A stretch of 64,000 nucleotides of DNA from the sequence record KT184316.1; one strand, 5' to 3'. Origin of the DNA: Enterobacteria phage XTG1. Below, one piece after another: positions 32,695 to 34,511 of the stretch. The notes below the pieces were generated by a model. That model was not told where the DNA came from. It searched no databases and saw only the letters and a list, made by a program, of their open reading frames with translations. The translations under genes were made by a program, and so were the position numbers. The number at the start of each line of letters is the position of its first letter. Positions within the stretch are counted from its first letter, which is position 1.

Positions 32695-32799
32695 AATGAC
32701 CTCAAAGTTATATTAAATTTTGTATTACGTTGAGTATAAAAATAAGCTATAACACCTGACTTGTCAACAGATTTTATAGCTTATTTGGCAGATTTTTTA

Positions 32800-33040
32800 T
32801 AAGGCTACTGCCATCCTTCCATACCTTACCTTACCACACCTAACCATACCTAACCAAACTACACCATACAATACCTTGTTAAAAGACCCTTTTAAAGACC
32901 TTTTAAAAAGGTAAGTCTCATTTTAATGTAGCTGAGACTAACTACCCGCACTGAACCCGACCTTACCGAACCCTACCTCACAACACACCACCATACCGGA
33001 CAAAACAGCACCTTATTAAAAGACCCTGTTTAAAGACCTT
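32800..33040. repeat. Composite intergenic repeat, copy A (pentamer array plus conserved about 75-nt block)
   Basis: ggctactgccatcc, then CCTTACC/CCTAACC/CATACC array, ttaaaagaccc-ttttaaagacc-ttttaaaaagg, gtaagtctcattttaatgtagctgagactaactaccc; shared with 34195-34440. Confidence 0.6.
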
Positions 33041-33066
33041 TTAAAAAGGAGCCTCCGAAGAGGCTA
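33041..33066 (-). terminator. Rho-independent terminator on the minus strand (UUCG tetraloop)
   Basis: Minus-strand reading agcctc-ttcg-gaggct followed by a T-run; lies just downstream of minus-strand gene ending at 33077. Confidence 0.55.
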
Positions 33067-33076
33067 CCTAGTCAAC

Positions 33077-33517
33077 TTAGAAAGGTTTTCTACGTTGCTT
33101 GTTAATGTTAGCTTTCATAGCAGCTAAATGGTTTTGCTGTTCAATCAGTCGTGAGCGTTCTTGATGGCTAAGTGCCATAGTGTTCACATTCTCAATCGCT
33201 TGAGTGGCTTGCTTTAAAGCTCGACCAATCTTGCCAGACATTTTACGTTTTGCAATAGTTGCTTGATGCTTAGGTTCAACCACACGATAACCAACACCCA
33301 TTGAAGCAACCAGATAAATCTTCTCTTCTTTAAGAAGCTTCTCAATAAACTTCTCAAGTCGGTTTAGACGTGTAAGCGCATAAGCCTTCATTTCATCTTC
33401 GTACTTAACAATGTCACCTTGATAAGTTGGCTTCACAATACCTAAGAAGGTGTCCATCTCAGAATGTGATACAGTGTCACCGTAACTGAACTTTGCTGCT
33501 AATGCTTTTGTATTCAT
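33077..33517 (-). CDS. Hypothetical protein (146 aa)
   Basis: Intact ORF flanked by the composite repeats. Confidence 0.5.
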   Translation of the reverse strand: MNTKALAAKFSYGDTVSHSEMDTFLGIVKPTYQGDIVKYEDEMKAYALTRLNRLEKFIEKLLKEEKIYLVASMGVGYRVVEPKHQATIAKRKMSGKIGRALKQATQAIENVNTMALSHQERSRLIEQQNHLAAMKANINKQRRKPF

Positions 33518-33519
33518 AA

Positions 33520-34122
33520 TTAAACGTTACCTTCTGAAATAACTTCTACAGAAAAACGACCAAAGCGTGGACGCCAATCACCTACACCACAAAGGTTACC
33601 AGCATTTTCCAGAACCATCAGAAGTTCCTCTCGGGTGATTTGCTCTTCATCGAACATCAAACCAAACTCTACAGACCAGTCACGGAAGATTGGACGGTAG
33701 CTCATAACTCGTGCTGTACCAATCTTAACAGACTTAGCATAGATAAAGTCTGGATTCTTAGCGAGTTCTTGTGGGTTTGCTGGACAGTTCTTGATAGTCA
33801 TTGGGAAGACTACATCTGTCAGCATAATAGCTCGGTCAATTACCTTACCAAGTTTGTTGAGTTTTGCACCAGACTTGATACAAGCCTCAATCATCTCACC
33901 GTTCATAACAAAACCTAGCTGCTCATCGTAGTAACAAGAGGTTACCAGTTGGCTTTCTGCTAAGAGCGCATAGTCTTCGTCAGTCTTTTTACGTTTACTG
34001 GACAGAGACTTGTGATATTTTGTCAGAGGGTTTAACGGGTCTGACAGCGTATCAGCGTGGCTCAGGAAAGGACGAGTACCAGTGATTTTGATATTTAACA
34101 GTTTCATAGCATTTAGCTCCAC
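33520..34122 (-). CDS. Hypothetical protein (200 aa)
   Basis: Intact ORF flanked by the composite repeats. Confidence 0.5.
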
Positions 34123-34194
34123 ACTTTAGTTGATTGTTAAGTTGTTTGTAAAGAACCCTCAATAGAAGACTCTTTAGAAACTTGGTAGATTTTT

Positions 34195-34440
34195 AATGTG
34201 GCTACTACCATCCACCCATACCTTACCGAACCTTACCCTACCCTACCAAAACGCACCTAACCTAACCGGACACTACCTTATTAAAAGACCCTGTTTAAAG
34301 GCCTTTTAAAAAGGTAAGTCTCATTTTAATGTAGCTGAGACTAACTACCCATACTTTACCTGACCGAACTAGACCCTACCTCACCAGACATAACCGCGCC
34401 AAACCTTACCGCGCCATACATCACTTAAAAACCCTCTTAA
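34195..34440. repeat. Composite intergenic repeat, copy B
   Basis: gctactaccatcc, CCTTACC/CCTACC/CCTAACC array, ccttattaaaagaccctgtttaaaggccttttaaaaaggtaagtctcattttaatgtagctgagactaactaccc nearly identical to copy A. Confidence 0.6.
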
Positions 34441-34511
34441 AAGACTCTTAAGTGATGCTGGTGAGTACCCGTTGGTTTATGCTGCTCAGTATACTCACCA
34501 AATTTTCTATG

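Follow-up and report, generated by a model that had tools for sequence, protein, structure and literature searches.

A locus in a Felix O1-type phage with the hallmarks of a type II VIPR system of the SUSP1 clade

Enterobacteria phage XTG1 (sequence record KT184316.1) carries two related intergenic blocks that flank a pair of minus-strand genes, and it is this locus, analyzed within a stretch of 64,000 nucleotides (hereafter the window), that we discuss here. It very probably belongs to type II of the VIPR (Viral Interference Programmable Repeat) systems, within the SUSP1 clade, and has four vrRNA genes flanking vipr and vap1. As judged from the sequence and the predicted structures, the locus bears the hallmarks of the SUSP1 system. 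The VIPR feature is real but already known, having been described in 2026 preprints, and the locus adds little as a discovery because the effector protein of the model system SUSP1 is 98% identical.

VIPR systems consist of a small RAMP protein, Vipr, usually accompanied by an accessory gene, vap, and flanked by genes for vrRNAs of ~100 nt, each made up of 9 to 16 repeats with a conserved GGY and a hypervariable NN, followed by an invariable 3' tail with a pseudoknot (10.64898/2026.04.26.720920, 25 June 2026). The NN dinucleotides pair with double-stranded DNA, every third base of the target being skipped, and the complex represses transcription (10.64898/2026.04.26.720920). In the model, Escherichia phage SUSP1, one vrRNA is encoded upstream and three are encoded downstream of vipr-vap1, the ~100-nt vrRNAs are expressed and co-purify with Vipr, and silencing needs both vipr and a guide; a satellite phage is the common natural target of the SUSP1 clade, and the base that is skipped falls on the wobble position of the codon (10.64898/2026.04.26.720920). 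In a structural preprint, Vipr is reported to form a helical filament in which every repeat is occupied by a single protomer, with GGY held by H17, D177, R138, W178, E71, M72, R179, and C173, and the R-loop triplex to form from the pseudoknot end (10.64898/2026.04.26.720927).

The evidence for guide RNAs begins with the repeats. As a preliminary description of the region had proposed, the two blocks share a common order of elements and bracket the minus-strand genes 33077-34122 in gaps of about 380 bp. These non-coding gaps measure 382 bp and 389 bp and hold copy A (32780-33075) and copy B (34180-34510), for which pairwise alignment gave a mean column identity of 83% and an identical block order. 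The arrays within them had been read as degenerate units of the type CCTTACC, CCTAACC, and CATACC. The repeats are indeed there, but the heptamer-like unit is not, since autocorrelation reveals a strict period of 5 that reads NNACC on the plus strand and GGYNN on the minus strand (identity autocorrelation, 0.44 to 0.63 at lags 5, 10, 15, and 20 and roughly 0.15 to 0.4 at other lags). Each copy contains two tracts, so that two guides lie upstream (B1 and B2, with 14 and 12 units) and two downstream (A1 and A2, with 13 and 11 units) of vipr-vap1, all on the minus strand. The search for further copies that had been suggested returned only these four tracts; nowhere else on the two strands of the 64 kb are 6 or more of 12 in-phase triplets ACC.

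The same grammar is found in close relatives. For comparison we used 28 related loci, including four GenBank records and 23 IMG/VR contigs retrieved via a neighboring 127-amino-acid gene, which together supplied 41 distinct tracts and 517 pentamers. Position 1 of the pentamer is G in 74% of cases and never C, position 2 is G in 96%, and position 3 is T (89%) or C (10%), with a frequency of 0.0 for A, while positions 4 and 5 are essentially random. Such a pattern is far beyond chance. Tracts comprise 9 to 17 units (median, 12, by logo parse), and for 35 of the 41 the distance that separates the flanking blocks is divisible by 5. The element is modular, the unit being a long hairpin (H1), a pentamer tract, and a second conserved hairpin block, with one to three units per gap.

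The pattern also leads to Vipr from the outside. Scanning IMG/VR for seven in-phase GGT triplets, (GGTNN)x7, returned at least 120 stretches. Many of the matches listed come from unrelated contigs, on which several degenerate arrays of 10 to 17 pentamers stand in tandem, and 36 of the 120 loci listed, all retrieved by the bare pattern alone, encode a homologue detected by the Vipr profile, which in the loci inspected (e.g., L037, L047, and L125) lies directly beside the arrays. As a separate observation, the contigs L037 (3396-3843), L047 (2302-3406), L125 (3233-4335), L044, L036, and L132 carry 7 to 11 tandem GGYNN tracts next to a distant Vipr homologue, and the tracts in such unrelated contigs each close with a fixed unit (GGCTA, GGAAT GGTTT, or GGCAG). 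These are probably other VIPR array architectures.

Two conserved RNA folds frame each tract. Every tract is directly preceded by the ~18-bp, G·U-rich hairpin H1, the base of whose 3' arm overlaps the first repeat. The pair cells of 55 distinct H1 copies divide into 706 of the Watson-Crick type, 218 with G·U, and 6 with A·C; because G·U pairs so far outnumber A·C pairs, H1 would form in RNA of minus-strand polarity. Its two quite different, covarying stem types share a conserved upper stem, GGUCUU/AGGGUC. The 8-bp inverted repeats noted earlier in copy B are both present and correspond to the H1 stem (tcacttaa/ttaagtga) and to a further hairpin, H0 (ggtgagta/tactcacc). Following each tract, a 34-nt tail is predicted to fold into a hairpin and a pseudoknot with covarying pairs: among 19 distinct tails, pairing holds in 94.7% of cells, compared to only 27 to 36% when the partners are slid by 1 to 3 columns, and compensatory changes affecting both partners occur in 9 of 11 pairs. 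The pseudoknot occurs in three versions, GUAG/CUAC, GUGG/CCAC, and AAGG/CCUU. The ggctact(g/a)ccatcc blocks, described earlier as a leader, are likewise present but are not a leader; they form the tail that closes the final guide of either gap and come in two covarying versions. Of the several roles put forward for the composite blocks, that of small RNA genes proved apt, the blocks corresponding to four vrRNA genes.

The protein-coding part of the locus points in the same direction. Vipr and its positional counterpart in SUSP1 agree at 191 of 195 residues (98%), and the vap1 product is identical to its SUSP1 neighbor at 145 of 146 (99%). All of the vrRNA-contact residues H17, E71, M72, R138, C173, D177, W178, and R179 are present in Vipr of the window, and T175, which is also on the contact list of the preprint, is V in SUSP1 and the window alike. 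The protein corresponds to a RAMP of small size (~20 kDa) that has a single RRM, a G-loop, and a thumb, and the ORF (open reading frame) map and family scans delineate a minimal vipr-vap operon flanked by long non-coding regions; it is by these features that type II VIPR is recognized. The ORF map and the repeat and family scans revealed no CRISPR array of identical repeats with unique spacers and no cas1/cas2 or other cas genes near the locus.

What the guides might be aimed at was approached from the E. coli side. When the structural region of the phage was compared by megablast with 5,426 complete E. coli genomes, its tape-measure and baseplate genes had matches of ~93% identity in 401 chromosomes; the part of the window at 40000-64000 gave no megablast match to E. 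coli genomes. The matches fall in a chromosomal island of ~11 kb, present in 476 of the 5,426 genomes by a more sensitive search, which is integrated at different sites (mdtG, a DUF72-domain gene next to yecD, near tonB, and near wrbA). A large serine recombinase marks its boundary, and its genes specify either a Dam methylase or HNH/AP2, along with small hypothetical proteins and the tape-measure and baseplate proteins, a content that suggests the make-up of a satellite. The phage counterpart of the island's tape-measure and baseplate genes lies at 17940-19681 of the window, and the island is often interrupted by insertion sequence elements.

Because natural targets are imperfect and exact patterns gave no matches (the exact full-length skip-1 patterns of B1, A1, and B2 had none in IMG/VR), satellites were scanned with mismatches allowed. 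With a 1-nt skip, 70 distinct Felixounavirus guides found 116 sites with an NN match of at least 80% in 11 satellite loci, and 41 of the 70 had a match. Control skips of 0, 2, and 3 yielded 6, 2, and 2 such sites, respectively. The published one-nucleotide-skip rule is thereby reproduced from sequence alone. One locus included wide chromosomal flanks, and there the nine sites at or above 80% were without exception inside the island. There was no sign of self-targeting in the 64-kb window: none of the four guides of the window has a site of at least 80% at skips 0, 1, and 2, and skip 3 recovers guide genes only.

Three of these four guides likely have satellite targets. Guide A2 matches at 20 of 22 positions, a score that none of 300 shuffled guides reached, and its site overlaps both the start region and the -10 hexamer of a predicted promoter (TTGACA-17 nt-TAGTAT) that immediately precedes a satellite gene. 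Guides B2 (20/24; none of 300 shuffled guides) and B1 (22/28; 1 of 300) would both be directed at the tape-measure gene, and at both sites the skipped base is codon position 3, the wobble position, in agreement with the preprint (10.64898/2026.04.26.720920). The same homologous site is matched by B1 in several satellites, with eight consecutive dinucleotides perfect. Taken together, a phage VIPR aimed at a parasitic satellite element in E. coli appears the most likely interpretation.

Several points weigh against this interpretation. Guide A1 has no detectable target in the 11 satellite loci, its best score (19/26) being reached by 24 of 300 shuffled guides, and the scan covered 11 of up to 476 satellite-bearing genomes. 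At 79%, B1 falls just below the 80% cutoff of the preprint. Moreover, its mismatches cluster at the tail-proximal end, where R-loop formation is resolved first in the structural preprint (10.64898/2026.04.26.720927). The island is only possibly the same satellite as that of the preprint. For the vap1 product, a single-sequence structure and its fold search were uninformative as to the DNA-binding (winged-helix/helix-turn-helix [HTH]-like) protein expected of vap1 in this clade. Finally, all of the mechanism attributed to the phage of the window is carried over from SUSP1.

With this in mind, the locus might work as follows. Minus-strand transcription, probably from a promoter at 34515..34488, would give rise to a precursor in which vipr and vap1 are preceded by two vrRNAs and followed by two more; every vrRNA would comprise 11 to 14 GGYNN pentamers and the 34-nt hairpin-pseudoknot tail. 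Hairpin H1 ahead of each tract may act as a processing signal that releases guides of ~100 nt. One protomer of Vipr, a minimal Cas7-like RAMP, would then bind each repeat to build a helical filament in which GGY is flipped out and held by the protein, as shown for SUSP1. The variable bases would pair with double-stranded DNA, skipping every third base, and the resulting R-loop triplex would block transcription without cutting, again as shown for SUSP1. Presumably, the phage in this way silences a satellite that would otherwise parasitize it and that carries copies of phage tail genes.

Hairpin H1 was not mentioned in either VIPR preprint as far as keyword searches of their text go, and only this hairpin and the orphan guides of vipr-less relatives, discussed below, may go beyond what the preprints' text covers. 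Tentatively, and against somewhat long odds, H1 could set the 5' ends of the guides, e.g., as a substrate of host RNase III, and orphan guides could use Vipr provided in trans by a co-infecting relative.

Table 1. Features predicted at the VIPR locus of the window, in the direction of minus-strand transcription
Feature	Position	Strand	Remarks
Sigma-70-type promoter, TTGACA-16 nt-TATACT	34488..34515	minus	11/12 matches; upstream of first guide-RNA pair; same sequence in SUSP1
Hairpin H0 (ggtgagta/tactcacc)	34459..34500	minus	Conserved in SUSP1 and Felix O1
H1 before vrRNA-B1	34418..34458	minus	19 pairs, 3-nt loop; stem type ATCACTTAAGA/TTTTAAGTGAT; by folding
vrRNA-B1 repeat tract	34351..34420	minus	14 GGYNN units; guide dinucleotides AT GC AA TT GC TA CT GA AG CT TC CA AA AT
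vrRNA-B1 3' tail	34317..34350	minus	Hairpin AGUCUCA/UGAGACU and pseudoknot GUAG/CUAC
H1 before vrRNA-B2	34275..34315	minus	Stem type CCTTTTTAAAAG/CTTTTAATAAGG; by folding
vrRNA-B2 repeat tract	34218..34277	minus	12 units; guide dinucleotides AG CC TA TA GC TT AG AG AA TC AA AT
vrRNA-B2 3' tail	34184..34217	minus	Variant: pseudoknot GUGG/CCAC, stem GGUAG/CUACC
vipr, 195 amino acids, Cas7-like RAMP	33520..34107	minus	ORF opens 5 codons earlier at GTG 34122; homologues start at ATG
vap1 accessory gene, 146 amino acids	33077..33517	minus	145/146 identical to SUSP1 gene in same position
Intrinsic-terminator-like stem-loop past vap1	33050..33065	minus	T-run doubles as 5' arm of next H1
H1 before vrRNA-A1	33011..33049	minus	By folding and pair-cell counts
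vrRNA-A1 repeat tract	32948..33012	minus	13 units; guide dinucleotides GC TT CC AT GG GT GA AG TC AA CG TC GC
vrRNA-A1 3' tail	32914..32947	minus	Hairpin and pseudoknot
H1 before vrRNA-A2	32873..32912	minus	By folding and pair-cell counts
vrRNA-A2 repeat tract	32821..32875	minus	11 units; guide dinucleotides AT AT GT TT TA AT TA GT AA AA AT
vrRNA-A2 3' tail	32787..32820	minus	Variant: pseudoknot AAGG/CCUU, stem GGCAG/CUGCC
Long AT-rich hairpin with T-run, terminator-like	32739..32786	minus	Contains promoter-like TTGACA-17 nt-TATTTT for next gene

The presence of the two genes varies among close relatives, which bears out the earlier suggestion that the repeats mark the boundaries of a mobile or variably present cassette. 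Of 29 related loci, 19 carry vipr, with 3 to 5 guides, and 9, including Felix O1, lack vipr-vap, one locus being cut off at the contig end. The vipr-less loci (L006, L010, L015, L020, L022, L024, L025, L027, and Felix O1 itself, NC_005282.1 57632-57913, equivalent to L003:2916-3197) retain 1 or 2 guide units. The arrangement in Felix O1 runs from the promoter and H0 through a copy-B-type H1 and one degenerate tract to a copy-A-type tail. Such a layout resembles the outcome of recombination that removed the genes between two flanking guide units and would have fused the 5' part of copy B to the 3' part of copy A. Orphan guides match satellites at the 80% level in 6 of 13 cases, versus 35 of 57 for guides from phages with vipr. 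The orphans could be mere scars of the deletion, or they could function in trans.

This variability is also what lends some appeal to an alternative in which the repeats serve as PeSL-type cassettes for regulation or recombination and have no RNA-guide function. PeSLs are units of a promoter and a stem-loop that flank and shuffle accessory genes in T4-type phages. The resemblance extends beyond the presence and absence of the cassette in near relatives, since the vipr-less layout is what recombination of flanking units might produce, and a strong promoter and terminators belong to the composite. However, the PeSL reading leaves unexplained the GGY/NN logo with random NN, the covarying pseudoknot, the RAMP gene between the repeats, and the skip-1 matches to satellites. 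PeSLs have neither pentamer arrays nor a partner RAMP, whereas VIPR repeats are themselves functional RNA genes, and recombination between units is better seen as a side effect of repetition. We therefore regard this alternative as very unlikely.

A replication origin with iterons had also been proposed, and in its broader form this reading takes the arrays for DNA-level repeats of an origin or packaging site that are bound by an oligomeric DNA-binding protein. The many short direct repeats with nearby hairpins, the AT-rich non-coding gap, and the location in a DNA-metabolism gene block would all fit. In contrast, the 218 G·U versus 6 A·C pair cells of H1 mark RNA, or single strands of one polarity, and the hairpins are thus strand specific. 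GC skew simply follows gene orientation, with no extremum or switch at 32.7-34.5 kb, and the number of arrays varies from 1 to 5 among near-identical phages. Furthermore, a period of 5 bp places successive sites on opposite faces of duplex DNA. The origin proposal thus lacks support, and iterons or packaging sites are scarcely credible here. The related idea of a binding-site array for a regulator fares better in one respect: each GGY is bound by one Vipr protomer in the structural preprint, but on RNA and not on DNA (10.64898/2026.04.26.720927).

A formal parallel is TRAP. According to this explanation, the tracts would be RNA binding sites or sponges for a ring protein that wraps 11 to 13 triplets with two-base spacers, serving attenuation or the sequestering of a host RNA-binding protein. 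In Bacillus, TRAP binds the trp leader RNA through 11 triplets, spaced by 2 to 3 nt, around an 11-mer ring. A triplet with a two-base spacer in tracts of ~12 repeats is formally the same as a TRAP site, and both systems combine a periodic conserved triplet and non-conserved spacers with one subunit per repeat and a similar tract length. The triplet is nevertheless GGY and not (G/U)AG, i.e., GAG or UAG, its third base never being A in the 517 pentamers, and the adjoining protein is a RAMP that forms a helical filament rather than a ring. In addition, the NN positions carry information for matching foreign DNA, the target of VIPR, which a sponge would not need. The chance that TRAP-like sites account for the tracts is, in our estimation, negligible.

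Other candidates were also discarded. A Rho rut site on the C-rich plus strand leaves the invariant AC and the period unexplained, the boxA resemblance of GUCUUUAAACA, which would suggest boxA/nut-like antitermination, sits inside a paired stem, and two-tier G-quadruplexes are argued against by the conserved base after GG and by TGT/AGT variants; arrays of primase sites and a Chi-like GCTGGTGA were dropped as well.

Returning to the VIPR locus and its setting, window positions 32000-36000 match 259 phage records at 90 to 95% identity, nearly all of them Felix O1-like myoviruses (Felixounavirus and relatives), and by these matches the phage of the window is a Felixounavirus, of the Felix O1 type. 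The surrounding minus-strand block contains early and DNA-metabolism genes, including those for thymidylate synthase, dihydrofolate reductase, an HTH regulator, and DNA ligase. The promoter listed in Table 1 probably drives the locus. Because the 5' arm of H0 overlaps the -10 hexamer of this promoter, H0 would be foldable only in RNA reading through from the ligase gene. That gene is separated from the promoter by a 62-amino-acid ORF on the minus strand (34512-34700; phrog_5428, no assigned function), whose stop codon abuts the -35 hexamer and which is annotated in some relatives and not in others. An Rfam scan of 32400-34800 at an E value of ≤10 gave no match, and the GGYNN repeats are absent from the list of other repeats in the Felix O1 genome paper.

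The window contains further repeats at a distance from the locus. A cluster of 25 tRNA genes on the plus strand (23-5187) accounts for the repeat families D1 to D3 and D10 to D13. Two adjacent regions at 25598-28443, in which CAC/CAT (His) codons are frequent, share internal DNA repeats of 53 to 95 nt with 60 to 75% identity (families D4, D9, D14, and D15), and another repeat (D6 and D8) is present in three copies at 26792-27530. The repeats at 25598-28443 are probably equivalent to those that Whichard et al. recorded in Felix O1 genes 76/77.

VIPR, which has only recently been described, is a minimal system for RNA-guided binding of DNA and has been proposed to be older than CRISPR; the window shows it in a Felix O1-type phage. 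About 230 phage records match the repeat and are annotated there with "hypothetical proteins" and "repeat_region"; these unnamed proteins and repeat features can now be named. The comparison of relatives also documents the easy loss of the cassette between repeated guide genes.

Compared to SUSP1, the locus shares the order of ligase, guides, vipr, vap1, guides, and a homologue of ORF87, as well as the GGY/NN repeats, the hairpin-pseudoknot tail, the promoter, and the H1 hairpins, and the target that we infer is of the same kind, an E. coli satellite. It differs in that SUSP1 is a Suspvirus, whereas the phage of the window is a Felixounavirus, in the distribution of the guides (one plus three in SUSP1 and two plus two in the window), and in the sequences of all four guides. 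The more distant comparison is with the backbones of class 1 CRISPR-Cas systems (Cas7/Csm3/Cmr4 on crRNA). Common to both are a RAMP fold, built of an RRM core together with a thumb and a loop rich in glycine, one protomer per fixed interval of RNA, and periodic base flipping, the last two known on the VIPR side from the SUSP1 preprints. In contrast to class 1 systems, the VIPR locus has no repeat-spacer array, no cas1/cas2, and no other cas genes, only the RAMP fold being held in common. Likewise, the VIPR guide is non-contiguous, using 2 of every 5 RNA bases to read 2 of every 3 DNA bases, and VIPR resides in the genome of a virulent phage and acts by silencing its target instead of cleaving it.

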